Shown here piece by piece: positions 27,801 through 64,000 of a DNA stretch of 64,000 nucleotides (its first letter is position 1; every line of letters begins with the position of its first letter). Under the pieces are notes generated by a model that was given only the letters and a program-made list of their open reading frames with translations, was not told the origin of the DNA and made no database searches. This stretch comes from Owenia fusiformis. Taxonomy: Eukaryota. The stretch lies in assembly GCA_903813345.2 (NCBI GenBank), contig CAIIXF020000001.1, positions 29,078,001 through 29,142,000 on the forward strand, written 5' to 3'. A program made the position numbers and the translations under genes.

Positions 27801-30800
27801 GATAGTCAATTTGAAGCAAGTTCAAGAGGCCTTTTTGACCTTGAGAAGGTCATTGAAGGTCAGATTTTCAGCTCTTAAGTCAGATTTTAACTTCTGATAA
27901 CTTGCAGATGATTTTGAAAAAAATGGTCAATTTGAAGCAAGTTGAAAAAATACCTTTTTGACTTTTTTTGACCTTGAAAAGATCATTGAACAGTAGAAAT
28001 GTTTTCACATGTGCAAAGCTCTATTTAGTGATATTTTCATTTCAAATATGGTGGTCAATCCGATGTCTGACAACCCTTACAAACAGCAGCTTGTCATTCA
28101 CGTATACACGCTTAGCAAACATAGCAAAATGATCTGAATTTTGGATTTTTGTTCGAGAGCTAGTAATGATTTTTAAGTGTCTTCATCATAAGTGTTCATC
28201 AGACTTTGCGCATGCTTAGGAGAAAATCATTGACCAATCAAGTTTATAAATTAATTTTGCGCATGCGTCTTACAAGGGTGCAGAAATTCGTATTTATAAA
28301 TGAAACAATTTGAGATAACCTGATATCAGTCGGAAAAATCTGACGATCTACAGATACTCACTTCAAAAAATCAAAAGCGCACTGACGGCTTATTCTACTA
28401 TGCTGGAAGTCTTTTGGGATCTTTCGAATGAGGTAAGTCTCTAGTTAGAAAGACAATCAACTTGAACAAAAGTTGAGTTTTGAAGAAAAATTCTAATATG
28501 CACTGAAGACCCATTTTAGTAATACCATATTGAAGTTCTGAAAACTTGTAGATGATTTTGAAAAAAATTGAAGTCTGTCTCAACAGTATTTGTTAAGTAA
28601 TTGGAAGTTCTAAGAATTTGTTACAGATGCCAACCGCCACCTGCCGATCACCAACCACCAATCACCAACCACCAACTGTTGCCACAAAAAAATGGTGAAC
28701 ATAACAATATGTCACCATTTTTTGGCGGTGACATAATGAAACTGGACTGATATAAATATCATAAGCAGTAACACACAAATCGATGATTTTCAAGTTGAGC
28801 TACGAATGAATTTTGGTTGGCTAGCTAAGAATCATTTGGAATTTAGAAAGTAGATAATAGACAAGGAATAACATAAGTAGAAGAATGATTTTTGAAAAAG
28901 TTACATAAAATTGAACTTACTGAAGTATTAGCATCTATACTTTCAAACATTACAATTGGCACAGTAATTTGTTGTGTTGCAGATTTCTTAAACCAGTTAA
29001 TCCCTTCTTTTCCACGTCTGAAATTAAAAAAGGAAAAATAATGAGATTTTGATTTGTTGAACTTGATGATATAATGAAAAAAATGATATTGAGATTGCTA
29101 CAAATCTGATTGCCCGCGTGGCATAAATATATCTTGTATTGATTGCAGGATTCTTAATGCTCTCCAATGTCACTGTATCACACACTTTGATGTCAGACCT
29201 TTTCTGCTAAAAAGATTTAAAGATTTCACATAAAAAGTATGGCACCTTATGAAATACTGACTTACTGGGGCGCAATATTTTATGTATTTGAATCATTGAA
29301 TAATCAAATATAAAATAATACCAAATATATTTACTTCAAACAGACACTTAATCCTATTCCAGCTAATAGGACTACAAAAACAGAAACAGCTGCAATTAGT
29401 CCCCAATGCCAGAGTCTCAGTCCTACAAAAATAAGAAATAGTAATTGACAACAAAAATCCACATGACACATCAATATCTGCATGTGCAATGCACTCTTGC
29501 AGAGAGTGTACCAAATGTAGCAGACTAGGAGATGAGTACCATTACATTTTAGAATGTAAACTTTTTGAAGATGACAGAAAAATACTTCTAGATAACTACT
29601 TCATTAGACAACCAAATATGTTAAAATTTAAAAGTTTGTTGTCTAATATTAAATATTCTGTGCAATTAAGTAAATTGATGAAGATTATTGGTGGTAGTGA
29701 ATTAAACTAAACTGTATTATCATTGTATGTATATGTACTATTTTATACTCACAAGTGTGGGTAGAAATAAGGAAAAAGAAAAGAAAAAAGAAAGATACTG
29801 ATATCAATCCATGAATAAAAAGGCATTAACGTGCAAAATAACACCACCTAGTTGGTCACAATATTGTGAGTTTAAATCTGAAGTCAGATTTGAACTTCTG
29901 AGAACTTAAATGATTTTGAAAAATAAAAAAAGGTCAATTTGAAGCAAGTTGAAAAATACCTTTTTGACCTTTTATGAAAGATTTGAACTTTTAAGAACTT
30001 GTATATGATTTTGAAAAAAAATTGATTCGGATTTGAACTTATGAAAACTTGTAGATGATTTTGAAAAAAAATGAAAACAGTCTAATCAGTACTTGTTAAG
30101 TTATTGGAAGTTGTAATAGTTTGTTACAGACGCTGACAATATGTCACCACTTTTGGTGGTAACATAATGGTGTTACATTACTATCAATTTATGAATAGAA
30201 TGATATTAATATCAATTCCTGAATAATGATATTAATGTCAACTCATGAATAAACAAGGCATTATGATGCAAAATGTCACCAGCTGTCATCTGTTACAGAC
30301 ACAAACACCAACAACCAAACACCATCCACAAAATGTATGGTTAAACACAATGTGTGAATATGATTTAAGAGAAATATTACCTATGAATCTTGAAGTGACA
30401 ATCACACATTTACTTGGATAACTCTGATGACCTCCCTCAGAGTATGATGACATCTCAACACAATATTTACCCTCTGGTACTCCTGGTATTGTTACCCGGA
30501 GTTTGTTTGCTCCGGTAACATTATGTACTGTGACTGAAAAAGGAAATGTGCTAGGTATTACTTAAGCCACCTTTAGGAAGTCCACGGAACCAATCAGAAC
30601 TCTCTGCTTCATCACGTGACAAAATATTGAAAATGTCTATACGGACTGAATAAATATCGCATCATTGATTGGGCGATTGGTTTTTTGGTATCTCACAAAA
30701 CTCTGCGGGCAACTGCCAGGAGGGGCAATATTGAGAGTGAACTCAGCTGGGGTTTATTTACACAGTGGCCGGTTAAATCGGGCAGATTTATCAAGGTGAG

Positions 30801-33800
30801 GTAGGAACAATCGAAACCTTGTGAATCAAGATGGCTAATACTGTATATGGAAAGTATCAAGTTAATGTGTAGAAGACAATGTCATTAGATTGCTACTCAC
30901 CATTAGAAATATCATTCTCTGGATAGTAGCGGATAATCCATCCTAAGACTGGATATTTCATCTCACTACATAGATATGATTTCCATGAGACAGTTAAGCT
31001 TTCACTGATACCAGAGTCATCAATGGCAACAACTTCTTTAGGAGCTTTAACCCTTGCTGAATACAACAAAAGCAATTTAATTGAGGGTTGAGGTTTAATT
31101 GTGGTTAAGGGTTTGCCAAGGACATTTGGTTAATATATTGTAACTGTAACTTGTAAGTATGTACATGTAACTCATTTGTCTATTTACCAGCTGTTTTTAA
31201 TATCAGCTTGTTTTAAATACAGATTATAAACATGTAATTGTTTTGGTCACCATCTGTATTAACCCCTCTGATAGGTTAAAATCTTAATACTGTAATATAA
31301 TATGAGCTGTACTATTTTTAAGCATGTGACTTCTTTTATACTTACGTATGGAATAATCATACAAGCAATCTGCCCAATTTATCCCAGAATGGATCTTCCC
31401 ATTAAATACTGACACACCATATAAGTTATTAGTTGCCCCTTCTAAACTCATCATATGGCTTGTTACCCCATACTCCAAGACTTGAAGTACAATGGGTTTC
31501 TGAAATAATGTCCATAAAATACATCCATTCAAACATGCAACAAAGCTTCCAATCAATTAGACTGTTCCATTAAAGGATTATAAATAAATACTCAATTGAT
31601 ACAAGAGCTTATATGTAGAAGTTCTCTTCAAATATATTTTACAATTAAAATCAATTTAATGTCTATTTATCTTTGTTATTCCCTTATTATAAAAGTGACA
31701 ACAAGTGAGTGATTGCAAAAGCTCACCATGTGAGCTAATGAACTACATATACAATGTTAGCTGTATCCAAAATAGCTACAACAAACTATCAACTGTATGC
31801 ACTCTGCTCCTCACCTTTCCATTACAAACTTTGTCACTGAACCCCTGTCTTGGACAATATACTACAGTTGCTTGTTCTGATGGCCCAATATTGAACCTCA
31901 CTGTGACGTTATTTATATCACTGAGGGCAACAAGTTGTTGAACAGGAAACACTGGAAAAGTGAATCATTTACCAAATGAGTACTGCTTGCACAGATTGAT
32001 AAGTGTCTGATACGACTAAGATGTTGTATGAATAGAGGTAATGATAAAAAGGGATACATTTTTATGAAACTACAGTATATTCAATGATCCATTTAAAAAA
32101 CGATCAGATTTAAAGGGACATTCCTTCATAACCTGTTCATAACTGAATTGAATACTTAATTTTTTTTATTGTAAACATCCATATAAAGATATCAACGGAG
32201 TTGGACTAAATGCATATTTGACATAACGACTGTTTTTGCCACATATTCATTTTGTATGATTACATTAGATGCATCATAAGAATATTCATGAAATATGACC
32301 AAAACAAAAAATAAATGTTTCACAGCAATGAGTTCATTTTCACTTACCTTGTTCAGCTCTGGGTACTTCAATAAAGTTTTGTAAGGTAGAACTATACCCA
32401 ACTTCAGTTCTACACTCAACCACCAATCTGTATACACGGTCCTGTTTTAATGTGGTGGAGCACATGTTCCTATCTGCAGGAACAACACACAGAGTTGCAG
32501 CATTATATGAGATTGTAGGACCATCTTCTGATACATCACGGACACGACAATCTTTAAGAATGCCATTCTTATCTTCTTGTGGGATATCCTTCAATAAATA
32601 CAAATCTTCTGTCTAGCTCCTGTGCCACAAGTTCCCCACCCATCCTCAACAATTACATAGTGAGTCAAATCAAATCAAAAAGAGTTCATACAATATTGAC
32701 AATGTATATTTTGTATGACAAATTTAAACTAATTAATAATTTTCAATATTCATTAATATTATGAGGGAGTTTATCCTACAGGTTACCTCCCAATACAGAA
32801 CAACTGTTCGTGTGGAATCAGTTTGATTCAAGTTTCTTATTTCAAATCCACCTCCATGGACGCCTGGCCCTCTAGCAGGGACTGAAACAAACAGCTAAGT
32901 GTCAATATTCTAGCACAAAGCATGTACATAACATAAAGCATGTACATAAATTTAAACAAACATTTATTAGTTTACATGACATCTTAATATGCAATAGTAA
33001 CTCACTGTCTTGTTTAGTCCTTGCTTTGTCCTGTTTACTGTCACTCCATGCTTCAGGATCAGAGCTATTCCTAGAGGCGACCTTAACAGTCACATCAAAA
33101 GTGTAGTTTTGATATGGATGTAGCCCTTCCACAAGAAACCAAGTCCTGTCTGTCTCACCAGCATTCTGAAAAATCAATTTGTAATCAAAAAAGGTAACTA
33201 GAAAACTCCATAGAGTAGCAAATCCCACCAAGCAAATCCCACCAAACAAAACATAGTAAATACCTTGTGAATCATTATGGACATTACATGATAGAAAAAG
33301 TAGTAGTATAAGCAAACACCCATGATGCCACATAATAAATTCTTTCTTGAGCAGATGTCTTATACAATAAAGCATAATCGTATAAAATTTCAACCAAAAG
33401 TTATTTCTTCCTTGGCATCAGTAAAATGTAAAATTGGAACCAAACCCACCTTCTAGTATTTGAGTTTAATATCAAACATTACATTTTTAAGAAAAATGGC
33501 AGCCATTTTGAAATTCAGTGGCCATCTTGAAAATTTCTTCTTGAGCAGAGTTATTTTATTTCTAGGCATCAGCATATAAGATTTGGACCAAATTTGAATT
33601 ATCAAAGATCACTTTTTTAAGAAAACTGATGGCCATTTTGAATTGCGCACCATATTGTAAATTCCTTCTTAAACAGAGACAAGAGGTGAACATTTTCTAA
33701 AAATCCTCTTTAAATTGGCTTAAGTTTTGTTTTGCCTAGTTATTCTATAACCCTTATCAATATAATATTTCTCAATCGCAGGATGTTTCTGACATAAAGT

Positions 33801-45800: not shown

Positions 45801-48323
45801 AAAAAATAATTTTACCAGATTTGTTGAATTTTCTAGCGGAAATTGCCTGCTCCCCCCCTCCGTCCCATTTTCACGATCATCGGGCGTGGATATGTAGAAA
45901 CATCCCTGAAAATTTCAGATGAATCCCTCAAAGTTTGGCTGGAAACCTGTAGACAAGTCTTGAAAGTAAAGATTTTAGGACGGAAAATCCAAAATGGCCA
46001 CCTTAAAATTTACCCAGAATGCCCAAAAACTAATCAGTTCTTGACGTTGATATGTAGAAACATCCCTGAAAATTTCAGATGAATCCCTCAAATGGTTTGG
46101 CTGGAAACCTGTAGACAAGCTGAAAAGTGAGACGCCGCCCGCCCGCCTGCCAGCCCGTCAAGCTGACTACAATATCGTACCTTTTTTTAGGTACGATAAT
46201 AAAAATTGATGATTGTTGTTGTATACCTAGAATCATATTAATTTTACGCCATCTGTATACCTAGGATGTATTCACTGTTACATTCTTCACTGTTTGGTAG
46301 CGTCACCATTAATTACAACATCTCCACTATGACTTAAATTGAATTTACTTCCTGGTATTTAATATTACTCTAGTAAATATTTATTATCGCTAAAAATATG
46401 TTGTAATTTTTAAGACTTGTCAGTGCTTATCCTCCAACTGCAACGTGCATGAATATTACCAAACAGAATATAACATAGTTTATAGGTTTCACAAAATATG
46501 TAGAAGATGGAGTAAAAATTGTTGTCATACTTCCTATTTTAGCCACCTGTCCTCCAATGTATGTACCGTTCATGCTATTGTTCAAGTAGCAATAAAATGG
46601 TTGACTCCCAGTGTATTGTCCTGTCATATTCTCTTTGTATGTCATTATAGTTGGAGACAGGATCGCATAGAATTCTGATGAGATTTCTTTGGAGCCAGCT
46701 TGGAAATAGAGGTGGCTTGAGTTGAAGGGGGCAACATCCCCTGTCAATGTACAGTTTAGTTCAATATAATTTCCAAGCTCAACTAGAGGATTCACTGGTG
46801 TTACTTCTGAAAACGCAAGAAATACAATTTGCTGAATGAAATCAATCAAACATATTTGCATCAAATGCCGTATAATATGTATATTTAAATACATGTACAA
46901 TATATATGCAATAAAGTCGGAATAAACTTCAAAAACTATTTTTGTTTTTAATTCTGCCATCAATGTCATGATTCATGAAAACCACAAATGATTTTTATGT
47001 TGACATTCATATTTCATTTAGAGAATTGATTGTATCATCAATCACTCGTAATACACTGGTGATCTGCTCGATTACGCTGGTTACCGAAACGGTTCGGTTC
47101 GTTACCAAAATATCGGAACGTCGAAAGTATGATTTTTCTTGTTTCCCTATTTCACGCGTTGTAGGCAGAATCCCCACGACGTTTTTCTCACAAACATGTA
47201 CTGTATCAGTATCATATATTTTAGGAAATGAACATGTTTGCGAAAAAATAGCTCAGAAGACAACAGAATCGTCCATTTAATTCCTCACTTAAGTTACAGG
47301 AATGGTTTGGGTTAAAAGTGCAGATCTTAACTGTTTTTCGAAATACCGTTTCTTTACTTTAACACTGTTCCACAACTGGATGACTCTAACTGCAGTTAGC
47401 TTCATTCAAGATGGTTGCCGAGATTCTTTCGTTTTCGATAAACCTCCGATTTCAGCTAAACTAAGTTGAATCTTGATTCCAAAAGTTTCGCCATGCAAAT
47501 TAATAAAACTATGATTGTATTCAACCACAAATGAATGCTCTAACACCCATAATATTAGAGAATTTTAAAGAAAACGACTTCACTTAGAATGACTCTAACT
47601 GAAGTTGATGATCTACGCCATCATGACGTCATCATCAACTTCAGTTAGAGTCATTCTAAGTGAAGCCGTTTTCTTTAAAATTCTCCAATATCGCGGTTGT
47701 TTGAGCATTTATTTGTGGTTATTTACCATCGTAGCTTTATTAATTTGCATGGCGAAACATTTGGAATCCAGATTCAACTTATTTTAGCTGAAATTGGAGG
47801 TTTATCGAAAACAAAAGAATCTCGGCAACCATCTTGAATGAAGCTAACTGCAGTTAGAGTCATCCAGTTGTGGAACAGTGTTTAAGTGAGGAATTAAATC
47901 TAAACATATGTTACTGATACACGTTTGTGTTAAAAATGTCGTGAGAATTCTGCCTACAAGGTGTAAAATAAGGAAAAAGAAAAATCGTAGCTTCGATGTT
48001 CCGAAACGGTTCGTTTCGGTAACCAGTGTAATCGAGTGGATCACCAGTGTAATAGCTATATAAATCATAAATCATAGTTTACAAATTCATTGTTAAGAAA
48101 AGGATACACAATATCTGTGTTACAGTACAAAGTTAATTATGAAGTTTTCAGTTGAAATGGGCGCTGCGCCACAAAAAAAGATGCTGGGGAGATCATAATA
48201 AAGTAAATGTGCACCTCAAAGAATTTAATACTCACCTCCTGCAGTTGACACAAATAATCCTTGCAATAAAACTGGGGATAGGACCAAGTACAACACATAT
48301 ATCCGAGTCGAATGTAAGGCCAT
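21310..48323 (-). CDS. Multi-exon type I cytokine receptor, Domeless/gp130 (IL-6 receptor beta)-like; 908 aa (exon 5a) or 914 aa (exon 5b)
   Basis: Coding exons with GT-AG boundaries and matching phases: 48236-48323, 46531-46806, 40113-40242, [35038-35210 or 34785-34975], 33975-34120, 33006-33165, 32787-32881, 32348-32588, 31815-31951, 31346-31499, 30901-31056, 30381-30533, 29335-29422, 28921-29017, 22431-22553, 21310-21819 (sum 2727 or 2745 nt). Architecture SP-Ig-CBM(2 FN3)-3 FN3-TM-tail, with LHPYQNYTF and AWSDS (WSxWS-like) and SGINWADC motifs. Confidence 0.88.
22431..22553 (-). CDS. Receptor exon 16: cytoplasmic
   Basis: 123 nt, phase 0-0; HFGGSGRQPQDGYTDPES...DFLSP. Confidence 0.75.
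22800..24404 (+). repeat. 42-bp tandem array (left foldback arm)
   Basis: aaaactaagaccccccacgttat + aaaactaagaccctgttat units. Confidence 0.95.
24440..24750. repeat. 75-bp tandem repeat inside the foldback element
   Basis: tagtcttgc.tctgg recurs at about 24497, 24572, 24647 and 24722. Confidence 0.9.
24752..25270. mobile_element. MITE with TA TSD (family also at 52304-53020)
   Basis: TIR aattctccatctaaaatgtcactcgacttttt; splits the ccc-TA-gtaacata site of the host repeat. Confidence 0.8.
25327..25916. mobile_element. Palindromic MITE nested in the foldback element
   Basis: ggtggttcaagattt...aaatcttgaactacc; arms pair over roughly 200 bp. Confidence 0.75.
25942..26100. repeat. 30-bp tandem repeat
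   Basis: gccagcataaaatggga.atcactttttat, about 5 copies. Confidence 0.9.
26268..27190 (-). repeat. 42-bp tandem array, inverted (right foldback arm)
   Basis: Reverse complement of the left array. Confidence 0.95.
27606..28737 (+). repeat. Degenerate HINE-like element (related copies at 29815-30167 and 30252-30350)
   Basis: caaggcatta...aaaatgtcaccacc head, internal tandem units, 3' hairpin atgtcacc...ggtgacat. Confidence 0.6.
28921..29017 (-). CDS. Receptor exon 15: juxtamembrane/Box1-like region (RGKEGINWFKKSATQQITVPIVMFES)
   Basis: 97 nt, phase 2-0, gtaagt donor. Confidence 0.82.
29335..29422 (-). CDS. Receptor exon 14: transmembrane helix (WGLIAAVSVFVVLLAGIGLSVCL)
   Basis: 88 nt, phase 1-2; hydrophobic stretch followed by KRGK in the next exon. 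Confidence 0.88.
29490..29793 (+). mobile_element. 5'-truncated LINE 3' fragment (RT C-terminal CCHC region + A-rich tail)
   Basis: CTKC...GDEYHYILEC...RQPNMLKF followed by a (GAAAA)n tail; intronic, antisense to the receptor. Confidence 0.75.
30381..30533 (-). CDS. Receptor exon 13 (FN3 end; IPGVPEGKYCVEMSSYSEGG)
   Basis: 153 nt, phase 1-1. Confidence 0.82.
30901..31056 (-). CDS. Receptor exon 12 (FN3; SLTVSWK...GWIIRYYP)
   Basis: 156 nt, phase 1-1. Confidence 0.85.
31346..31499 (-). CDS. Receptor exon 11 (FN3; YGVSV...SGINWADCLY)
   Basis: 154 nt, phase 0-1; SGxxWxxC motif resembling invertebrate Domeless. Confidence 0.85.
31815..31951 (-). CDS. Receptor exon 10 (FN3)
   Basis: 137 nt, phase 1-0; FPVQQLVALSDINNVTVRF...VVYCP...VCNGK. 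Confidence 0.8.
32348..32588 (-). CDS. Receptor exon 9 (FN3; DIPQEDKNGILKDC...)
   Basis: 241 nt, phase 0-1; NG.I motif of membrane-proximal FN3 domains. Confidence 0.85.
32787..32881 (-). CDS. Receptor exon 8 (FN3; PARGPGVHGGGFEIRNLNQTDSTRTVVLYWE)
   Basis: 95 nt, phase 1-0. Confidence 0.85.
33006..33165 (-). CDS. Receptor exon 7: CBM D2 second half with WSxWS-like AWSDS
   Basis: 160 nt, phase 0-1; GLHPYQNYTFDVTV FN3 tyrosine corner. Confidence 0.9.
33975..34120 (-). CDS. Receptor exon 6: CBM D2 first half (VPYAVNKVKL...INVTWEP...YRVLYKR...WQ)
   Basis: 146 nt, phase 1-0; FN3 strands A-C. Confidence 0.88.
34183..34577. mobile_element. MITE with a 26-bp TIR and internal direct duplication
   Basis: aaaggacgattctcggtttggagaac / gttctccaaaccgagaatcgtccttt. 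Confidence 0.75.
34785..34975 (-). CDS. Receptor exon 5b (mutually exclusive), second half of CBM D1
   Basis: 191 nt, phase 2-1, tttttgcag/gtaaat; HPSFGDLTPCTSEDKEHKSSCICSSNHCNFTHISARLYLYLQIDLTNDICKTTARESIDTEAH. Confidence 0.8.
35038..35210 (-). CDS. Receptor exon 5a (mutually exclusive), second half of CBM D1
   Basis: 173 nt, phase 2-1, ttttacag/gtgagt; YGDGPYQCGVSPICSCTENHCYFSRIIQSQPILYLFLTIENELGLIKQVQRIYMKDH. Confidence 0.82.
35406..37123 (+). mobile_element. Satellite-bearing HINE/pearl-like element (about 135-bp units), inserted in a palindromic MITE (about 35288-37543)
   Basis: Tandem units, (GGAC)n microsatellite, 3' hairpin atccc...gggat; flanks 35288-35402 and 37428-37543 are inverted repeats. 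Confidence 0.8.
38290..39388 (+). repeat. Second, degenerate copy of the 135-bp HINE family
   Basis: Similar to 35540-37123; interrupted at 38881-39281. Confidence 0.7.
38881..39281. mobile_element. Tc1/mariner-type MITE
   Basis: TA|CTGTACGCCCGGTATTATTCGCG...CGCGAATAATACCGGGCGTACAG|TA. Confidence 0.88.
40113..40242 (-). CDS. Receptor exon 4: first half of CBM D1 (KPLMPTNFHARFNNWNDGHFSWEP...)
   Basis: 130 nt, phase 1-2, tttttcag acceptor and gtaagt donor, no stop codons. Confidence 0.8.
40901..41735. mobile_element. CAC-ended hairpin MITE with a 5-bp TSD (Transib-like), copy 1
   Basis: CACGCCCGGTGATCG...CGATCACCGGGCGTG; TSD AGTCT; about 410-bp arms. Confidence 0.85.
42474..43914 (+). mobile_element. 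HINE/pearl-like element with a 162-bp satellite
   Basis: aacaag head, 162-bp units, (GGAC/AGAC)n, 3' hairpin ccccac...gtgggg. Confidence 0.8.
43960..46200 (+). mobile_element. HINE/pearl-like element with a 162-bp satellite (related copy at 61945-62500)
   Basis: Subterminal aatatcgtacct repeated in the 3' hairpin atcgtacct...aggtacgat; (GCCC)n tract. Confidence 0.82.
44870..45888. mobile_element. CAC-ended MITE with a 5-bp TSD (Transib-like), copy 2, opposite orientation
   Basis: TSD GATAT confirmed by the empty satellite units gttGATATgtaga. Confidence 0.88.
46531..46806 (-). CDS. Receptor exon 3: N-terminal Ig-like domain (EVTPVNPLVELGNYIELNCTL...FYCYLN)
   Basis: 276 nt, phase 1-1, Cys pair typical of the gp130/leptin-receptor Ig domain; lies within ORF 46427..46969. 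Confidence 0.88.
47054..48049. mobile_element. About 1-kb hairpin MITE with a TA TSD
   Basis: TA|CACTGGTGATC...GATCACCAGTG|TA; arms pair to about 47620. Confidence 0.85.
48236..48323 (-). CDS. Receptor exon 2: signal peptide MALHSTRIYVLYLVLSPVLLQGLFVSTAG
   Basis: accATGG Kozak context; hydrophobic core; G|gtgagt donor in phase 1, matching the Ig exon; acceptor ttccag gives exon start 48348. Confidence 0.85.
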
Positions 48324-52303: not shown

Positions 52304-53020
52304 AGATTTTCGCCAGCTAAAATGTCACTCGACTTTTTTTGTGATTTTGAATCACAGAAGGCATTCTGAAGTTTCAAATTGGCGCCATGTTTAATTTTTG
52401 GCATCCGCCTAATGTATATCACTTACCTTTTATTGATTCTTTCATAAGTTTCGTCAAAAACTCAGTTTGACCAGAGTAATCTGTCTCACCGCTCCAATTT
52501 TCTTGAAAAATGTCTTATTTTCTAATCACCCGGATGTGCGGTTTACTTGAACTCGCCCAAAACGAGGGGTGTCAAACGCAAGATGGTAGAGATGCAGACA
52601 TGTCGCCACTCTCAGAGAATCTTTTCCATAATTTCAACATTACTACGCGGTTTCACAAGCGTATAGGATAAGGGCAGGTTCAGGTTGTATATGGACAAGA
52701 TGAAAATAAATATTCTAAATAGATGACACCCCTTTGGAAATAAGATGAACTGAACTTATCACGTCACCGATTTCTTAGAAGAAATTACGTCAGAAAAACA
52801 AAAGCTCCGAAAAGAATTTTCGCTTGAAATGTTGAAAAGCAAGCCCAGTTTTCTAAATAGTTACGTGTACAATATTACTGAGTTCGATGGTGAAGAAAGT
52901 AAGTGAATAAGTTAGGCGGTGGATCATTTTGTAAGTACGACAATGTAAATTAATGCGACTGTTACTTTTTGGATGGTTTTTTGCAAAAAAGTCGAGTGAC
53001 ATTTTAGCTGGCGAAAATCT
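52304..53020. mobile_element. MITE with AG...CT ends and a TA TSD
   Basis: TIR agattttcgccagctaaaatgtcactcgactttttt. Confidence 0.8.
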
Positions 53021-53086
53021 TAAAAAAAGAGCAAGGTCAGCATTCAAAATCAAATTTGAATTTCAGTAATAAACAGAAACACTTAC

Positions 53087-53310
53087 GATTATAGTTTGAT
53101 AACAGCTATTTTAACCATCAGAACATCACCCCTGTCTTAACTGTTCCCCGTGTGAGCCTAAACCTAGACAAAAACGAGTCTTTGGTGTAAAACAGACCAG
53201 CGATTAATGCACTTCTTGAGTTCTTGGAAGTTCGTGTCAGGTGACTACACTGAACGAAATAGCTTGATCCCGGGAATGACAGAGGACAAAGTTAATATCC
53301 CCCCCGGGAA
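53087..53310 (-). promoter_or_regulatory. Putative core promoter and non-coding exon 1 of the receptor gene
   Basis: gtaagt donor at 53081-53086; TCAGT Inr at 53249-53253; TTCN3GAA at 53221-53229; TTCCCGGG at 53269-53276 and 53303-53310; homologous to 9967-10345. Confidence 0.6.
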
Positions 53311-53635
53311 TATGCAATTGCATTTTGATTCAGCCAAGATCGTTTTGTAATCATTAAATGGTATCAGTACCATGTGGACTGAGTATTTTTGTAGTTAATT
53401 TAATATGTCATTGTTATAACATCAGAGGGTCAATAAAATACTGTACATATGGGTAGATGTCTATATAACACCCCTCCATCAACCATACTGTACTGTATAA
53501 AAAAGCTTAGACACAAGAAAAAGAAACAAATTGAAAGCAAAATCTATTCGAAATTCTATTATTGAATTGGGTTTTGGGCATGCGCTTTAATGTCGTAATC
53601 TTAATTGCTTGAGAATCCACATAGACTGGACTATA

Positions 53636-54662
53636 CGAGGGTTGATCATAAAGTTCTCATAATATCTCTTTAATTTCTTTATTTTCAATATATTCTAATG
53701 AAATTTTCACAGAATGTACAACATAGAATGTCTTATTAATTCAGCGAAAAATAGTTAATTTAACAGAAATATTAAATAAGAAATGGTTGCCATAGTAACG
53801 GCAAATCAAGGCCCCCCGGGCAAATAAAAGTAATTGAGAGAATGGCTCTAATTAACCATGTTACCACACATAATAAACTCTCATAAATTACCAAACACAT
53901 TAAAATATTAACTTGAATATGTTTTTAGGTGCTTTTACTATTAAAAAAATGATAATGTGGATTGTGTGATGTCATAGGGGGTGCTTTCATGCTTTATTAG
54001 ATGTGATACCAGAGTCTGAGACTCAAAGCTTATGATCAGAAATGACTGAGTAAGAGAATCCAATAGTTGCAGAGATCTTCAGAAAAATAAAATTCATACT
54101 GATAAAATGTTATGTTAAGTTTGTAAGATCCTTTGGTCAGACTAAACATGATCTAAAACAAATATATTGTTAAGATATCAACAAAACTACCCCCTGTTTG
54201 TGGTCTGTACATGTTAAAAAATGAACTAAAGGGGCAAAATCAATTTTCCTCAGGATATTTGACAAAACAGTCATGGGGTCTAACAGTCACTTCTAATGAA
54301 GCATACCAATCATCCATTATGAGATCACACAATTCATATGACCATTATAATAGTTCCCAACAGTCAAAAGCACATATCATTTGATAATTTAATGTGTCTG
54401 ATAGCTTATTTGACAATTTATAATGTATTTAAACATGGTTAATGAGGGCTATTCTAGCTAGCTTTTTTATTTGCCCCGGGTGCCTTGATTTCAAGTTACT
54501 ATGGCAACCATTTCTTATTTAATGTTCCTGTTATTCTAAATAATCTTTGAGGGATTAATAAAACATTCCATGCTGCACATTATGTGAAAATTTCATAGGA
54601 AAATATTAAATAAAAATAAAGAAATTAGAGAGATATTATGAGAACTTTATGATCAACCCTCG
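53636..54662. mobile_element. Mariner-type MITE with long TIRs
   Basis: TA|CGAGGGTTGATCATAAAG...CTTTATGATCAACCCTCG|TA. Confidence 0.88.
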
Positions 54663-55454
54663 TATATACTGTATAGGTGAATTGGAGTCACCTCATTGGG
54701 TGATTATTGAATAAAATCGACTCGTCGTTTATATGTTTATTGGAAATATTATATTTAGCATATAGACACCCTGTATATTAGAAAGTAAAACAGTCGGGCT
54801 CAGTAACTGATTCCGAAATTCAACAAAAAATCGCATATCCCTAACTGCTACTGATATTCAAAAAATCCAGTATCAGATCCCGTATTAGCCAAAATCCAGT
54901 ATCAGATCACATATTAGATCCCGATCACGTATTGGATCCCGTATCAGCCAAAATCCCATAGACCTATCAGATACCGTATCAGAACTACAAATATATATCA
55001 GAAAATTTCATGAGACTTGTGTTCTTATGGCATCTTATGATCCATATTAGTATTATGAATTATTTGGATTTTAAAACATTATGAAAAATCAGAAAAACAT
55101 TATAGCATAAATAGGTTATTGATGGTCATGATGGAAAACGATTTTTTTCCTCGAGAAAATATATTGGCCTTGGAGCTGTCACCCTCGGTCAAAGGATATA
55201 ATTCCCTCGAAATAAAATTCACATTCCATTCCCCCCATTAAATAAACTCTATGCCTCATTTTAAGTGCCGTAATCCCACACGTATTGGTACATACAGTAA
55301 AGAGATCAACATCATTTGCATAGATTTTGTCAACAGAATATTGAATGCAGGTTTTAGATATGTTGAGCTAAAACATTATGCAAAGTATTTCTATCATGAT
55401 ACATGTATTTCCTGTTTTTGGACTAATGGGATTCAGACCATTGGGATTCGGATA

Positions 55455-55943
55455 CTGTAGATTGGGTTAATTTAGCCCGCTTTAATTTGGCGAATTTGGC
55501 GAATTTGAAAAATTCGCCAATATAAATCTTCGCCAAAATTTAGAATGAATCCCCGGGAATTATCTAGGGTATTTCGTCCAGTGTATCTAGGTCACTTCCA
55601 GTTTAGTTTTTTCCAAAAATATGAAAAAATGTCTCTCATAAATTGGCTCAGAACTGGTCAGTCACTCATTAATACTCAGGGAAAACTAGAAAGGAAAAGC
55701 GCGGTATAGGAGCAGCATCGATCGAGGGGCAAAATGTAAAGGATGATCTCACAAATATGTACAAATGTGGTGAATATCGCCATTGGTCCTCAAAAGATAA
55801 AATGAACATAGCCAAACATGCCCATTTACATGATAGTTGCAAACGTAAGTTTAACAATTTTTTTGCATATCCGCCAAATCAAATAGCCGTCAATATGCCA
55901 AAAATCGCCAAATTAAGTAGCGCCAAATTAACCCAATCTACAG
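55455..55943. mobile_element. Tc1/mariner-type MITE inserted in a 15-bp repeat array (MULE-like end, about 55415-56030)
   Basis: TA|CTGTAGATTGGGTTAATTT...AAATTAACCCAATCTACAG|TA. Confidence 0.85.
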
Positions 55944-56065
55944 TAATTGGGATTCGAACGAATGGCATTCGGACTAATTTGGATTCGGACCATTAGGATT
56001 CCGACAAACTGGATTTGGACCAATGGTGTGTCATCGGTGCACTTTTAGCCTATTTCAGTATTTAA

Positions 56066-56533
56066 GCACGCTCGTCGGGGAGCTGTAGTGTACCGAGCCA
56101 GATACTAGACTCGAAAGAGAACGTGCTAAATTCAATGCCCCGTACGGGAATCAAACCCAGGACCTCCCGCTCTCGAGTTGACGCTCTACCCCTGAGCCAT
56201 AAGGGCTAGCCACTACAGCTGAGACTGTAGTAGCGACTTGCTATCGAAGGTCATTACACCATCCCCCCCTAGAAGAGGACGTCCCGTCGTAACTGATTTA
56301 CAAGGGCAATCCCACTTCTGACACCAATGTAACGACCCTTGGGCACGCTCGTCGGGGAGCTGTAGTGTACCGAGCCAGATACTAGACTCGAAAGAGAATG
56401 TGCTAAATTCAATGCCCCGTACGGGAATCGAACCCAGGACCTCCTGCTCTCGAGTCAAACGCTCTACCCCTGAGCCATAAGGGCTAGCCACTACAGCTGA
56501 GACTGTAGTAGTGACTTGCTATCGGTCATTACA
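56066..56533 (-). mobile_element. TRIM (miniature non-autonomous LTR element) with tRNA-like sequence in its LTRs, Helenus-like
   Basis: LTR 56328-56533 (TG...CA), PBS TGGTGTCAGAAGTGGGAT at 56309-56326, PPT AGGGGGGATGG at 56259-56270, second LTR 56066-56258 (distal ~15 nt missing). Confidence 0.85.
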
Positions 56534-57275
56534 CCTGCATTACTGGCATTACTGCATTATGCTTTGATAAAGGAAAAAATGATAGAACTTAGCATTCGTT
56601 CAGGAAGACATTTTGTATCATATTTTCCTTTCATCTATACATATACAAGAAACAGGACAGCTAGAAGTTTGAAACTTTTGCCAGAAATATAAAGCAATTT
56701 ACGATAATTTAAAATATCTCTGGGTGTTCTGACCCAACCCGAAATTGGTAAGTTGTTGTTTGTGACCCAACCCAAGCCTTTCCTACTGAGATTCAACATG
56801 ACTTGCATCAGATGAAAACTTGCCATATTTAGCAATCTCTTACAAAGCTTCCACCATTAGGTATTACCTATAGTATATATGGTATGCAATAAAATAACAT
56901 TTTTATTTTCCTGATATTTATTATACAAAATACCACATCTGACAAAATATTAAGTCTTTAACACTAAAACATCTTTTTAAAATTCCCTAAAGGAGTGAAT
57001 ATCATTGTGAATGAGGATACACATATGCACCCTTGATAACCCCCGCTCTGCCTCATGGGGCCTAAAACACTTCAAATAATATTTAAATATTTATTGGTTA
57101 TTAAACAGCTACGACAACATTTCTGATCAGGTGGCATGTCCAAGTACATTCATCATTGAATAAAATCTACTCCTTTTGGTGTAAATGACGATTCCATATG
57201 TCCTTTGACATTAGTATTCCCCTGAGTGTTCTTTGGATATTTTTTTCACAAATTCACAGGAAATGATTAAGTATT

Positions 57276-60200
57276 CTATGGTAATATATTCTTTATCCGG
57301 CCTAGTACACAAGCTGTGTATTTTTCTAAATTCACTTCTGTCATTGTAGCATTTTCCGCAGTCAGTTCTGAAACAGCCCCTTGCTTACATTGATCCATGA
57401 TGTTATTCCGATCTCCAATTGACATATCCTGTGAAAAGAAATAATAATTACATGTACGATATATTTCCTCCTGTGATAAGAGTATAAGGAAGTTGAACCT
57501 TAAGAGTTTCAAGTTTTTATATGCTTTATTCAGTCTTCCTAATTAGATACTATATCAGTTGAACAATATAATTATTTTGATAACTAAATGGGATGAGATT
57601 TGTTATTTATCGTTATTTGATTGTTTGAAACATGCAACCTTTATGAAAAGACAAGAATATATTGCAAGAAATTATGCTGATAAACAAACACATCTGCTAA
57701 AATAAACCATGTGACATAAAAACATAATAATGGGTTTATAAGTGTAATTTCTCCAAAACAATGTTCTTCAATGTACTTATAGGATATCCTATGATTTTGA
57801 GTGATATCATTTTTATCTACGAGGTGATATCAATATCTGCACAAGAGAGCGAATGAGTGCAGATAACAATATCATAGCCGTAGGCAGCGGGGGTTCGGTG
57901 GGTTCGAACCCCCAGTCAGGATTTCCCAAAATATAATTTTGCGGAAAAATGCATATAACCAGTATCATTAAATTACTGTGCTATTTGAAAACTACATATA
58001 TGAGGAGTAAATGAATTGATATTTGTTATGATGAACACGAGAGCCTTATTTTCTTAAAAACATGTCATAGTGAAGTTACACTTCCCTCAAAACGTTTGGC
58101 AACCTTAGGCACGGGGTGAGATGAGATTTTACATTTAGAAATAACAATAATTTCGCACAATTAGCTTAAAAGCACGCTTCTTCTCGGACAAAATAACCCA
58201 TCTTGGGCAATGGCTAAATCAGTCCTCTGTAGGAATTTTGTTTTAAGCCAGTTCTGGTCCAATGCGAAGTTATTGAAAACAATGCAGACGTCCCATACTC
58301 CAAATGATTTTTACAACATTGACGAATAAATATCTGGAATAGTCGTTATATTGATGGAACACATGTTCTTTCAAATGTGTACATCTCTGTTTTAAATTAA
58401 AATTTAAAATATTTCTTGGGGCGTCCCTGGGGCTGGCAAGTCCCCGAAACCAATTGCGTTAAGTAATTAAAAACGTTGTGAAATGAATTATTTAAAAGCG
58501 TGTATCATTTATAAACACAAGCATTTGTTCAAATTCATTCATTCTTTCATTTGTTCAATATTTATTTACCCATCACTTTCCAAAGAAAAATCAATCATTG
58601 CAAAAAATGATTTTATTTTCAGATACACTCCACCCATCTAAGAGATTGTATAGAATTCAAATTGTTATCGTTCCAGTTTGCTTGCTCTCCATTTTCATGT
58701 TATGTCATGATATGTTTAGCGAATAAATTATATAATAAAAAAAACATTGAAAAATTAAATGGTATTAATCTTCAAATAATGGAGGCCTGATTTGTTATTA
58801 AGCCGTCCAAGGAGGATTGGCTCCCAGGATCGAAACTCGATATTATCCAACAATGAAAACGTCGGAATGTCGTTATTTTCTAAAATTAAAACCGACAAAA
58901 TTTCAAAATAAACAGTTCAAAAGATTCGAACCAATATCTCGATCATTTCTTCTGAGTTTTGGAATTTTTCGTCAGGAAATAAGTCCAAAATTCAAGATTC
59001 AAATGTTGAAGTGAACAAAATGGCAGCTGTTTGAACTCAAATTTTGTATCACGACATGCCCTTATATGGGACAGAATATCGATGTTGCACTCTGGGAGCC
59101 AATCCTCCTTGCAAGCCGTCTGAACTTAACAGAATAACAGTCGCTTGTATTTATATATAATTTTATCCACTAAAACGTTTTTATTATCAATTGCGGTTGA
59201 TCTGCTCTGGGGGAGTTACCACTGAGCTCCGGGGACGTCCAAAGAAATATCTTTAACTTTTTAAAACAAAGCATAACCGAGACCCACTTATTTGAATAAT
59301 AGATATTTTCATCAGTAATACGACTATCCCGGATAGTTTATAAAGCCTTCGTGTAAATGTTGTGAAAAGTTATCATAGAAGAACGATCTTTCGGAGTATA
59401 GGGTGTTTGCGTCAATTTCAATAACCTTGCATTTGATCCGAACTGGCTTCCAAGAAAATTCCCGAAAAATAATGATAAGTCATTGCATGAAGTGATTTAT
59501 TTTGTCCTAGATGAAGTAGCTTAAGTTAAAGAATAAATTGTGCGATATAGTTGATATTCTTTGGAAACAAATCATGCTCCAGGGTCTTCCAGAAATCAGT
59601 CGAAATAATGGTGGATTCGGGGCAAATCAGATTTCAGGATATGTATTCAGTAAAAGATTCACCGGAATATATTTTGATGCAGAAAGTTAATTATAAGTTG
59701 TCTGACTTTTTTGCGCGTTGCCTGTTTATTTTACAAGGTCATTTTTGAAAATCATTTTTACGTCCTGTGTTATTTCAGTGGGAGAGGTTTCTTAATAAAG
59801 CCTATTACTTTCAGACTTTTCTCATGTCATTCCTTGTCATGTCTATTTTCTAAAAATCACAACAGTGCATACTTTATTCCAGGAAAACTAAAGATTTTTA
59901 CAAAAATGTAAACATTCTCATTATTTGGGAGAATTTAAACATTTTCACTCATTTTTGCACTTTGAATCATTAATAACTTCACCAATTTATAACATGTTGT
60001 GAATCTTTTGGGAGATATTGTATTTGATATTGTAAGGAATAGATTGGTAGGTCAATTATACGCGTTGCTTGTTATTTTGTCACCCCCTATATATCAGATT
60101 CTGCCTTTAATGAAGGTATTGAGATGAATTATATTTCCCCTCCCAAAATAGTTTTTTCTTTACAAATTATGCAAATAAGAATTCAAACTTAAAGATGCTT

Positions 60201-62922
60201 TAATACATAATCCAATGGGTTAGTTAGGCTTGCCAAACTTTTGGAGGGAGTGTAATTGTACAGATTGCATTATTTTAGAAACCCTAATGAAGGGGGGGGG
60301 ATTTGTGAATAACATAAAAATAGAACCCCCGGTCACCAAATCCTGGCTACGCCACTGAATATCACCAAGTAGACTAAAATGTTATTCTGAAAAAACCATA
60401 GGATGTTCTTATCATCCTACACTTAATGTACTTAATGTATAAAATCAAGTGGAGTATATCACCCCCATTTCCTTGACATAATGGTTTTCCTGAGTATATC
60501 ATGGCAATATCCTCCAGTTATTTAATTTGCCAATTGTCATTTATTTTTTAATGTTATTATACATTAAGTACACTTAGCGTAGGATAATCTATAATGTTCT
60601 CTATGGGGAAGTTTCCAATATTGTACCTTCCAGTCTGTGCAACATCCTTTTTCTAATCCTTTGTCTGAGCTCCCTTCAGATACTCCAGATCCTATGTCAT
60701 GGTCATTTGGAGAATGTCTACATCCATTCACACAAGGCAAACAAGGTGGACAGCCAGATGCTGCAACAAAAAGGGAGACTTGAATCTTACATGTACAGTT
60801 TACTGTATATAGAAATGACCAATGCCCACCTGAAGATAAAACGTTTGGCAGCACATATGTTAAAACATATGTTAAACATGCTATACAATCACCTCTCTTA
60901 AAAGACCATGCATAGACTATATACAGACTAATACAATTACGACATAAGTTATATAATTATGTATGCTATGCAATCACTACATATACTATACAATTATGAT
61001 ATAGGTTTTAAGATTCACATGAATATAATGTTCAATATTAAATGTTAATCATTTTGTATAAATTGGTTGATTCCTCTATCAAACCATTCTCCCGCACATT
61101 AAGTGTAAATATTGATCATAAATAATTTTTTCCTTCAAAGACATCAATCATCTCCACCAATAGTGTTATATTCACACTTACAATCTTTATCAGTTATGGC
61201 AACTCCTTGTTTGCTTTCACTCCAAGCATTGCGATCCGAACTGTTTCGATAGTTGACCCTTACAGACACATTAAACGTGTAGCCTTGATAGGGTTGCAGA
61301 CCTTTTACCAATAGCCACTCCCCAACTGTCTCACCTGCATTCTATGAATAATAAATAAATATTTCATTTCTGCCTGAAAAAAAACGCTCCAACTGTGTCA
61401 GTTGTTGACATTGAAGGAACACAATAAGTTGACCTTCTATTATCTTCTTTACAATGTATATTATTTTATTTTGATAATTCTGACCTAAATACTGTAAAAT
61501 GGCTAAACCGCATACTGATTAAGTTTCAATACTTGGGTTAATATTTTGAAGAAGGAATTAATAAAAGACATGCAAATCTTAACAAAAGTGAAGCAGATGT
61601 AGATACCAACCATTTACACAAAGAACTTATCATTAATTTAACTAGAAATTTGTTCAATTTCAGACTCCAGATATCAGATTTGTTTTTAGCTTATAGCTAG
61701 ATAAATAGATGTGGATACCATCAAGTCAATTTGTTTCGAAATTTTCAAAATGGCGTAGAATCTTAACTGCAGTCAGATTTCAATTCTGATTTCAGATTTG
61801 GAATCCCGAGATTTTGTAGATGATTTTAAAAAATGCGGTCAAATTGAAGCAAGTTTTTGAGGTCAAATATCTAAAAAACGGTAAGAGTAATCAAGAAAGA
61901 GATGGCACACTGTCTAATTGTCTTTTCCTTGGCCACATTTTTAAAACAAGGCACAGACGTGAACAATATCGTACCTAAAACACAGCAGTGTGACAGTGAA
62001 GAATTTGGGACGGAAAATCCAAAATGGCCACCTTAAAATTAACCCAGAATGCCCAAAAACTAATCAGTTGTTAACTTTGATACGTAGAAACATCCCTGTA
62101 AATTTCGAATGAATCCGTCAAATGGTTTGGCTGGAAACCTGTAGACAAGTCTTGAAAGTGAAGATTTTAGGACGGAAAATCCAAAATGGCCACCTTAAAA
62201 TTTACCCAGAATGCCAAAAAACTAATCAGTTCTTAATTTTTATACGTAGAAACATCTCTAAAAATTTAAGATGGATCCGTCAAATGGTTTGATTGGAAAC
62301 CTGTAGACAAGTCTTGAAAGTGAAGATTTTAGGACGGAAAATCCAAAATGGGCACCTTAAAATTTACCCAGAATGCCCAAAAACTGATCAGTTCTTAACT
62401 TTGATACGTAGAAACATTCCTGAAAATTTCAGATGAATCTGTCAAATGGTTTGGCTGGAAACCTGTAGACAAGCTGAAAAGTGAGACGCCACCCGCCAGG
62501 TAAATACAATAGACTCCAGATTATCATCTTGAGTCTAATTAAAATTTAATAATACATGTATGTCAGAATAAAAATGCAAGCCATATTGAGTTTTTACCAG
62601 ATTCTTCCAGTTTTTTTACTCTGTTGCAGTGATACTATTACTGCAAGAATCAAACTAATATAAGAGAAAAACAAGAAAAAAACAAGAAAGATGGCTTTAT
62701 AGAATATTTACTAATCAGTTAAATGGTATTTTTATTATCATTTTGATTTTAATATCATAGTTACCTGCCATGGTTCAGCACTATAGATTCTTCTGTAGAG
62801 CACTCGGTATACAGAATGAAGTAGTTGAACTGGATCGTCTTCTACTGAAGGCACCCATGTTACGTTTACTGCATCACTGCCATTCACAATGGGCAAAACA
62901 CTTTTAACCGGAGATGGTACAA
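57276..62922 (-). CDS. 3' part of an upstream cytokine-receptor paralogue lacking TM and cytoplasmic exons (soluble receptor or pseudogene); 5' exons lie beyond the window
   Basis: Exons 62765-62922 (phase 1-0), 61182-61341 (0-1; 33/53 aa identical to exon 7, AWSES), 60627-60760 (1-0; Cys-rich) and 57276-57428 (0-TAG; DMSIGDRNNIMDQC resembles DIPQEDKNGILKDC). Confidence 0.7.
58079..60252. mobile_element. Tc1/mariner-type non-autonomous element
   Basis: TA|CACTTCCCTCAAAACGTTTGGCAA...TTGCCAAACTTTTGGAGGGAGTG|TA. Confidence 0.75.
58808..59111. mobile_element. MITE with CAAGG termini and an 8-9-bp TSD (P- or MULE-like)
   Basis: CAAGGAGGATTGGCTCCCAG perfect TIR; (t/c)AAGCCGTC flanks. Confidence 0.8.
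61640..62540 (+). mobile_element. Chimeric or nested HINE-like element
   Basis: Ends belong to the agactccaga family; the interior (61945-62500) belongs to the 162-bp aatatcgtacc family. Confidence 0.65.
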
Positions 62923-62930
62923 CTGGAAAA

Positions 62931-64000
62931 AGCATCGACACATGATCAAGCATTGTCACGTGATCAAACAAAATGTCAATCCAAAAATTTTCTCCTCGTA
63001 AAATTGAGTTTTAGAGCTAAAATGACATAGCACCCCCAATTAAAAGACAACGGAGGAAAGAAGAACCGATAGACAACTTGACTAGAGCAGAAAAATAACG
63101 ACAAAGGACCGTACTAACCTGAATCTGGCCTCGGAAGTGTAGAAATTTTGAACAAAAGAAAACCCCGCCAAATTACGACATCGGATATGGCTTCAAAAGA
63201 TTCTCCAAGAGTAAGACATTCAAGTGTAAATCTTCTAGGGAATATTGTTCTTAGTGATCTTGGAATCGCAAAAGATAGTGAAAAGGGATCGGATTCAGAG
63301 ATTGAAAATGAAATGTCGCAAAATATTGCCGAAAAGGTACCTGCAGAAAATGAGTCCACTTCCGGTGAAAGAAAAAATACACGTTCGTCGACGAAAGCTG
63401 CAAAAAACAACAAGGTAAAGGTAAAAAAAGACACCAAGAGGAAAGACAAAGGTGACGGAGAGGGAGTTGGCAAGGTAATTATTGACTATCCATGTGAATT
63501 CTGTAAAAAACCACCCGCAGAAATCCAGTGTGAGCGTTGTTTGAAATGGGCTTGTATCACATGCCAAGACCTGTCCCTAAATCTGATTGGAATTCTTCAA
63601 AAGCACAAAAATATTCATTGGTACTGTAAACAATGTAGTCCCATTGTAGATCAGTCAGTTCAAGCATCAAGATCGGCAAGACCAAAAACAAATGACTCAA
63701 ATTTAACTGATCCCCTTGTTGAGACACAATTACAGCAAATATCAACAGTTCTCGGAGAAATAACAACAAAATTAGCCGACATACAGGGGAAGCAGGATAA
63801 GGTATCACCCCAAAACAATTCCGAGAAAAGCAATTCCACTCAAAGTAATACTGAATCAGAACATGTGCCCCCTCAGCCAGCCAATACAAATGTAACAGCA
63901 TCACTGCGTGAATATGCTGAAAGGGAAAAACGCAAAAACAATCTAGTCATATTTAATATTCCAGAAAGTAAAGCCAGCACACCACGTCAAAGATTGTTGG
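62931..64000 (+). mobile_element. 5' end of a CR1/L2-group LINE (5'UTR + ORF1), truncated by the window edge
   Basis: Open frame from ATG 63187 to the edge with a PHD finger, coiled coil and REKRKNNLVIFNIPES motif; 5' boundary approximate. Confidence 0.85.
63187..63999 (+). CDS. LINE ORF1 protein (PHD finger + coiled coil + RRM start), partial
   Basis: CEFC...IQCERCLKWACITC...WYCKQC; no stop before the window end, so it is absent from the ORF track. Confidence 0.85.
   Translation, partial: MASKDSPRVRHSSVNLLGNIVLSDLGIAKDSEKGSDSEIENEMSQNIAEKVPAENESTSGERKNTRSSTKAAKNNKVKVKKDTKRKDKGDGEGVGKVIIDYPCEFCKKPPAEIQCERCLKWACITCQDLSLNLIGILQKHKNIHWYCKQCSPIVDQSVQASRSARPKTNDSNLTDPLVETQLQQISTVLGEITTKLADIQGKQDKVSPQNNSEKSNSTQSNTESEHVPPQPANTNVTASLREYAEREKRKNNLVIFNIPESKASTPRQRLL

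Follow-up and report, generated by a model that had tools for sequence, protein, structure and literature searches.

Among the described systems closest to the locus considered here, a short receptor-like gene on a 64,000-nucleotide stretch of the Owenia fusiformis genome (assembly GCA_903813345.2, contig CAIIXF020000001.1, positions 29,078,001 to 29,142,000 of the forward strand; this whole stretch is the window referred to below), the vertebrate soluble gp130 (sgp130) serves as a ligand trap, originates from the single gp130 gene by alternative splicing, polyadenylation or shedding and possesses more FN3 domains than the product of the short Owenia gene. CRLF1, EBI3, IL-12 p40 and CNTFRα are ancient distinct members, cytokine subunits or alpha-receptors, and for cytokine engagement the D1-D3 module of gp130 suffices. 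In Owenia, an experimental developmental model, as in other annelids and Spiralia, almost nothing is to our knowledge known about the upstream side of JAK/STAT. The Drosophila duplicates dome and latran are direct neighbours of equal orientation, and Lat is a short non-signalling receptor that retains a transmembrane domain and a short cytoplasmic part (PMC2914635). Latran has been reported to bind Dome and intracellular components, and not the ligand (PMC4751595). In a survey of the pathway across metazoans, Owenia is mentioned once, for JAK, the word 'soluble' 0 times, no IL-6-like ligand is recorded in most invertebrates and only membrane receptors are discussed (PMC13203501). For annelids or other spiralians, no soluble receptor of class I was found described in the open-access literature searched.

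We put at roughly 0.6 the probability that the short Owenia gene is an expressed gene coding for a soluble, ligand-binding receptor paralogue. It would have arisen by tandem duplication of a neighbouring gp130/Domeless-like class I cytokine receptor gene, and its product would have kept a signal-peptide-like N-terminus, an Ig domain and a two-domain cytokine-binding module, equivalent to D1-D3 of gp130, the FN3 'legs' near the membrane, the transmembrane helix and the cytoplasmic tail having been lost.

Gene structure and transcription

In the window, the base composition of which is that of AT-rich animal DNA (GC 0.31-0.41), lie four minus-strand exons with which the coding sequence of the public Owenia fusiformis gene model P0001 (468 amino acids) ends. 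This model is already public, though unnamed and uncharacterised; the record reads 'unnamed protein product [Owenia fusiformis]' and the UniRef name 'Fibronectin type-III domain-containing protein'. The exons are numbered after their homologues in the full-length neighbour, the main gene, which lies on the same strand, downstream of the short paralogue and about 10 kb apart.

62765..62922, minus strand: exon 6 homologue, 158 nucleotides; first half of the C-terminal domain of the cytokine-binding module; residues 268-320
61182..61341, minus strand: exon 7, 160 nucleotides; second half of the C-terminal domain of the binding module; residues 321-373; the WSXWS position reads AWSES
60627..60760, minus strand: exon 8, 134 nucleotides; first half of a third FN3-like domain, strongly diverged; 6 cysteines, including CPPC
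57276..57428, minus strand: coding part of the terminal exon; 50 codons, then TAG at 57276-57278; from the splice joints and the end of P0001
57037..57275, minus strand: 3' untranslated region; from depth bins and AATAAA at 57090-57095; transcript end at about 57040-57090, located to the bin

The translated exon 61183-61341 (minus) matched one protein at 100% identity, P0001, and a tblastn search of P0001 on the window placed residues 268-320 on 62923-62765 and residues 321-373 on 61341-61183, both at 100% identity, residues 374-418 on 60761-60627 and residues 418-468 on 57431-57279. An AG acceptor stands immediately before 62922. An earlier note, made from the DNA letters, had read the chain 62922-61341-60760-57428, which proves to be exact by this mapping and by spliced reads.

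Three raw stranded Owenia fusiformis RNA sequencing runs of one study (X17, X18 and X19) were mapped on positions 53000-64000, with 6-12% of each run used and 43 joints and 813 loose ends left undisplayed. All three introns are spliced in 3/3 runs, with 7/8/4 spliced reads in X17/X18/X19 for the joint 61341|62765, 8/18/10 for 60760|61182 and 12/13/5 for 57427|60626 (cut +1), and their CT..AC ends correspond to GT..AG on the minus strand. Every joint-spanning read has its first mate on the plus strand, as minus-strand RNA predicts, and none supports the opposite strand. Coverage is roughly even over the exons, the terminal exon being equal to exons 6-8, while strand-specific depth in the intron bin 61441-61807 is 0.17/0/0. 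From the bin 57037-57403 (9.05/11.1/7.51) to the bin 56670-57036 (1.03/1.15/0.19) depth falls about tenfold past the AATAAA at 57090-57095, and the transcript therefore ends shortly past this signal. The splicing, the stop and the polyadenylation signal that had been proposed are borne out, and a lack of transcripts, which the earlier note would have taken as refutation of its decoy reading, is not the case in 3/3 runs. Of the AATAAA signals on the minus strand, two had been placed at 57090 and 56902 and are indeed present (57095-57090 and 56907-56902), together with a third at 56922-56917. No displayed joint of the three runs runs from exon 8 or 9 to anything downstream within 53000-64000. 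A further run, X1, was rejected as expression evidence, as its contigs were all unspliced and followed the genome straight through exon-intron borders, as DNA would.

The homology to the main gene, which had been claimed for exons 6 and 7, holds with an expectation (E) value of 1.8e-8 for the exon 6 open reading frame (ORF; 37% over 86 columns against 34214-33972) and of 7e-19 for exon 7 (33/53 identical against 33165-33007), exon 7 being 160 nucleotides long and of equal phase in both genes. What had been called a divergent exon is 60627-60760, a homologue of main exon 8 with 6/31 aligned residues identical, the terminal tryptophan among these, and equal phases, yet longer by 39 nucleotides (134 vs 95 in the main gene). 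The terminal exon resembles the start of main exon 9 weakly (tblastn E 0.072 over the first 25 residues; 15/50 aligned residues identical) and, as had been read, stops after 50 amino acids, with TAG at 57276-57278, before the last strands of the FN3-like domain. The main gene has a homologue of each mapped exon of P0001, and the two same-strand neighbouring paralogues agree with the tandem duplication that had been suggested.

Past the short gene, no credible relics of later FN3, transmembrane or tail exons were detected in 53001-57450 by tblastn of seven main-gene ORFs at E up to 50, in line with the earlier reading; the sole match below E 0.2 was the known start of exon 9. A frameshifted pseudogene had been kept in mind on account of a similarity of YLIISCE to YRLVVEC in another frame after the stop. 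This caveat is unsupported: the best out-of-frame score of 26 was equalled or exceeded by 403/2000 shuffles, and the YLIISCE/YRLVVEC pairing lies outside the best alignments of that search. A DNA-level alignment of both exon 9s was uninformative.

Predicted product and family placement

P0001 has one hydrophobic segment, which is N-terminal (residues ~18-47; best 19-residue Kyte-Doolittle mean 2.39) and comprises the sole 19-residue windows above 1.6. Past residue 60 there is no transmembrane segment (maximum 19-residue Kyte-Doolittle value 0.95), and the C-terminus has no hydrophobic end of the glycosylphosphatidylinositol type, its last 15 residues averaging 0.35. The product contains 11 N-x-S/T sequons. 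That it ends before the membrane, as the earlier note had it, is consistent with a signal-peptide-like N-terminus, taken from the public model, and with the lack of an anchor by hydropathy of P0001.

An AlphaFold2 model of P0001, computed from a shallow alignment of 19 rows, reached a mean predicted local distance difference test score (pLDDT) of 71.3 and a predicted template modelling score of 0.54. Residues ~55-373 form three mostly confident beta-sandwich domains, an Ig domain and the two-domain cytokine-binding module, and at residues 376-423 and 429-468 pLDDT falls below 50. The top Foldseek match in the PDB was 8d7h_A, a chain of the CLCF1-CRLF1-CNTFRα complex (E 4e-22), followed by the gp130 D1-D3 chains 8dps_A, 8dpu_A, 1i1r_A, 7z0l_A and 1p9m_A (E 3e-21 to 1e-19), for which template modelling (TM) scores by target are 0.68-0.74 over 325-337 aligned columns; sequence identity of P0001 to the matched structures is 12-20%.

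Among 1.84 billion representatives, phmmer returned 13 proteins, including P0001, at E 0.001 or better. Membrane-receptor relatives among these are P0004 (900 amino acids, E 2.2e-9, residues 31-349), P0011 (1227 amino acids) and P0013 (1240 amino acids), of which P0011 lies above the Pfam cut-offs for Lep_receptor_Ig (33.9/28.8), LIFR_D4 (26/25) and IL6Ra-bind (25.1/24.3) and P0004 just under them. The assignment to the class I cytokine receptors, of the gp130/LIFR/Domeless 'tall' group, is accordingly a predicted one, drawn from the modelled fold and from transitive homology. Of the cysteine pairs of the binding module, the second is kept in P0001 (Cys205 and Cys231), and for the first there is no cysteine at either position in P0001 or in the main gene (…TARFNYWNSGDIYW…), while C-x(9)-C-x-W is present in 4/4 full-length relatives (P0004, P0005, P0011 and P0013; alignment A1). 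The WSXWS motif is degenerate, AWSES in P0001 and AWSDS in the main gene, and four relatives retain only [YF]WS; the degeneracy is common to the whole group found and not specific to the short copy. P0005, a relative of 434 amino acids and 27% identity with an Ig, an IL6Ra-bind-like and an fn3 domain, shows no hydrophobic C-terminal segment as read and may be another short form in another animal, which, however, ends after a complete third FN3 domain, whereas P0001 ends mid-domain.

The last 95 residues (374-468) constitute a decayed half FN3 domain with 8 cysteines (SSGCPPCLPC…GCC). No Pfam family matched this tail at E up to 10, and nothing credible emerged from its other comparisons, the best Atlas feature score being 0.76 and all structure rows having a TM score below 0.5 by query. 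The tail is a decayed, cysteine-rich and probably unstructured stretch. In RNA reads, a G>C variant at 60745 (1/13, 7/21 and 8/16) changes the second proline of CPPC in exon 8 to arginine, either as a segregating non-synonymous polymorphism or as a strain difference. This variant speaks for weak constraint on the tail, which may nevertheless have a role in disulfide-linked oligomerisation.

Selective constraint

Between the two genes, the proportions of non-synonymous (pN) and synonymous (pS) differences are 0.27 vs 0.73 in exons 6+7 (101 codons), 0.63 vs 0.61 in exon 8 and 0.48 vs 0.68 in exon 9, of which the last has a doubtful alignment. In relative-rate counts over 297 positions of the Ig and binding domains, changes unique to the paralogue and to the main gene stand at 15:14, 11:14, 17:15 and 14:11 with four outgroups and at 15:12 against the consensus of the four, and no count departs from 1:1. 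The paralogue and the main gene are identical at 173/297 positions (58%), and P0001 is at most 27% identical to any other full-length match. By these counts, the short copy has kept ancestral residues in its binding part as faithfully as the full-length receptor, and purifying selection on its Ig domain and binding module is supported, while only the remnant past the binding module looks released from constraint.

Weighing of the readings

Once synthesized, P0001 would enter the secretory pathway and be released, would bind the ligand or ligands of the full-length neighbour via the retained D1-D3-like module, and would modulate signalling extracellularly, our leaning being towards an inhibitory ligand trap. 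This leaning follows from the expectation that a copy of the signalling chain without legs, anchor and tail competes for ligand. The narrower claim of an inhibitory trap is a tentative one, at clearly worse than even odds, and is ranked ahead of an agonistic co-receptor or cytokine subunit, which in turn precedes a functionless relic.

A number of points weigh against a soluble, ligand-binding product. The end within a domain and the 8 cysteines of the tail, which is modelled with low confidence, would also be compatible with a product that misfolds or is retained and not secreted, and within the CPPC of this tail the proline to arginine variant segregates. P0001 residues 1-267, which include the signal peptide and the Ig domain, fall past the right end of the window and are taken from the public model alone. 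P0001 by itself reaches only fn3 at 17.8 bits, where the Pfam cut-off is 25, its best PDB match by sequence has E 0.052, and it is devoid of the first cysteine pair and of the second WS of WSXWS, as is its full-length neighbour. Synonymous sites are saturated (pS 0.73), so that the ratio of non-synonymous to synonymous substitution rates is only bounded and not resolved to the branch of the paralogue. Minor or rare isoforms may exist, given the 6-12% of reads used and the joints and loose ends left undisplayed, and we know of no ligand for any spiralian receptor of the gp130/Domeless type.

Of the alternatives, the one that survives best, although unlikely, is a soluble agonistic co-receptor or cytokine subunit that enhances or enables signalling, such as soluble IL-6Rα, CNTFRα, CRLF1, EBI3 or IL-12 p40. 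An Ig domain and a cytokine-binding module without an anchor are the architecture of those vertebrate proteins, the best structural match of P0001 is a chain of the CLCF1-CRLF1-CNTFRα complex, and the binding module is constrained equally to that of the signalling receptor. On the other hand, P0001 is a recent-lineage duplicate of the signalling chain (173/297 positions; 75/92 in the Ig exon), and from a duplicate of the signalling chain itself competition for the same ligand surfaces is therefore expected, not complementary binding.

A transcribed relic, that is a truncated or partial duplicate with a functionless product which is becoming a pseudogene, is improbable. The frame does stop mid-domain, the last 95 residues are neutral-like (exon 8 pN 0.63 vs pS 0.61) with pLDDT below 50, without a family match and with a non-synonymous variant, and expression is modest, with about 10-fold depth from the fraction of reads used in the three runs. 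However, the 468-codon frame over at least 9 exons is intact despite saturated synonymous sites, pN in the binding module is only 0.27, ancestral residues are kept as often by the paralogue as by the full-length gene, all splice sites are canonical and in use, and the stop is situated in the last exon, so that the mRNA would be no target for nonsense-mediated decay. The intact frame, the used splice sites, the last-exon stop and the constraint together argue against a dead gene.

That the exons are the 5' part of a longer transcript which continues to membrane-anchoring exons, by missed exons or by read-through into the main gene, is hardly credible, as, despite the shared strand, the distance of about 10 kb, the main gene's first exons and promoter not having been located and some undisplayed joints and loose ends, no displayed joint leads downstream from exon 8 or 9, the terminal exon is covered to the same depth as exons 6-8, with a drop of about tenfold past the polyadenylation signal, an in-frame stop lies within the terminal exon, exon relics are absent from 53001-57450 and the public model P0001 ends at the identical stop.

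The full-length neighbour

The main gene was read in the window as follows.

46532..46807, minus strand: Ig-domain exon; 75/92 aligned residues identical to P0001, the most conserved part
40115-40240, minus strand: exon 4; 24/42 identical
35039-35182 and 34786-34974, minus strand: exon 5 in two copies; second half of the first binding-module domain
33975-34120, minus strand: exon 6; counterpart of paralogue exon 6
33006-33165, minus strand: exon 7; counterpart of paralogue exon 7
32787-32881, minus strand: exon 8, 95 nucleotides; matched by the spliced fragment P0007, splice sites read
about 32348-32588, minus strand: exon 9; matched by the spliced fragment P0007, splice sites read
31779-31964, 31287-31556, 30896-31129 and 30289-30561, minus strand: ORFs with two further putative FN3-like domains; ORF reading
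within 29334-29600, minus strand: putative hydrophobic transmembrane stretch; ORF reading

The spliced protein fragment P0007 matches main exons 8 and 9 at 81% and 90% identity, and together these two exons make up a complete third FN3-like domain. The ORFs in 29334..31964 are without counterpart in the paralogue, and the relative P0004 has one weak match to them, at 31424-31356 (E 0.069). With one Ig and five FN3-like domains and a transmembrane helix the layout of the main gene would be gp130-like, the later part being a reading of ORFs only. Pfam gave no fn3 match on single-exon pieces of the main gene; an annotated protein for it was not found with P0001 compared with proteins of 820-2340 amino acids (3098 candidates), nor did a putative tail exon at 21313-21819 match any of 3311 candidates of 297-2000 amino acids, and a simple pattern detected no Box1-like motif downstream of the transmembrane ORF.

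Of the two exon 5 copies, the first (35039-35182) is nearer to the paralogue (22/48 identical), and the second (34786-34974) is used in the spliced fragment P0003, at 86%; the two may exclude each other in splicing, or one of them may be a dead copy. The Ig exon is identical between the genes at 75/92 residues, as against 18/62 to 33/53 in other exons. An unnamed ORF, P0002, is 86% identical to the Ig exon of P0001 and continues into sequence that resembles the main-gene intron directly after (46457-46807, minus). Together with the similarity of the Ig exons, this may reflect gene conversion in and near that exon, a third copy or a divergent lineage. In the presumed main-gene intron between the transmembrane ORF and the putative tail exon, a long near-perfect tandem repeat of KTKTPHVIKLRPCY units at 26349-27098 (minus frame) holds a 250-codon open frame.

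Other elements in the window

Intron 6 of the paralogue harbours a 162-bp tandem repeat (61991-62484; 3.1 copies, 90% matches), and a different main-gene intron consists in part of related arrays (42520-46130). The repeat is abundant in RNA, mostly from one strand (depth 89.7-173.8 vs 8.07-18.7), with a recurrent joint 62198>62084 that goes back 115 (35/15/17 reads), and looks like a transcribed satellite or dispersed repeat. Within intron 5 of the paralogue, on the opposite strand, an open frame of 294 codons (63118-63999, plus) runs off the window end; it has weak PHD/B-box-like zinc-finger matches only (E 0.024-0.65) and a sense-strand depth of 0-0.31, and is probably a silent transposon-derived gene.

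A short element occurs at 56062-56518 in two neighbouring copies with a common translated stretch, one of them with a tRNA-Ser(CGA)-like fold at 56413-56484 (minus), and this element looks like a tRNA-derived short interspersed nuclear element in intergenic space. The highly covered repeat at 55202-55935 has depths of 56.9-85.3 and 14.9-48.5 on the two strands. Each of the three RNA runs shows joints between opposite strands there (55475/55922 and 55477/55920), a pattern suggestive of an inverted repeat that is transcribed from other genomic loci.

Comparison with known receptor systems

The Drosophila parallel that the earlier note had drawn stands with respect to gene arrangement: Domeless with Eye transformer/Latran and the Owenia pair share a gp130-like receptor and a shorter tandem paralogue in the same orientation, the short copy being without signalling capacity. 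It fails with respect to the protein, as Latran retains a transmembrane domain and reportedly does not bind ligand, whereas P0001 has no anchor and has kept a constrained binding module; the Owenia pair thus went the opposite way. P0001, in which a transmembrane segment is lacking, does not fit a short membrane co-receptor of the Dome/Latran type. Further, the short gene lies downstream of dome in the fly but upstream of the main gene in Owenia. With P0001 58% identical to its neighbour and at most 27% to other full-length matches, the fly and Owenia duplications must be independent.

If the proposed soluble, ligand-binding paralogue holds true, extracellular tuning of the JAK/STAT pathway by a dedicated gene extends beyond vertebrates, Dome/Latran is joined by a second, independent receptor under the control of its tandem duplicate, and the soluble module is a ready bait for catching the spiralian ligand.

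A more far-reaching and quite speculative proposal concerns the tail, the CPPC of which we take to resemble an antibody hinge. The tail may be a hinge of new origin, derived from the ruined FN3 domain, through which two chains dimerise covalently, and the gene would then encode a disulfide-linked bivalent ligand trap. As part of the same long shot, the combination of a receptor and its short paralogue would have arisen independently in Spiralia and flies by opposite routes. Should the hinge reading be true, the short paralogue would be a natural counterpart of the engineered sgp130-Fc.

With sgp130, P0001 would share that it is a soluble form of a signalling chain with D1-D3, and the folded P0001, as modelled, superposes on gp130 D1-D3 (TM score by target 0.68-0.74); the difference is that sgp130 is a product of the gp130 gene itself, while the putative soluble form of Owenia has a separate gene. 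CRLF1, EBI3, IL-12 p40 and CNTFRα likewise have separate genes, for binding modules without a transmembrane helix that are secreted or lipid-anchored, and in contrast to them P0001 is a lineage-specific copy of the adjacent signalling receptor. The closest systems in architecture are vertebrate sgp130 and the genome-encoded soluble CRLF1, EBI3 and p40.

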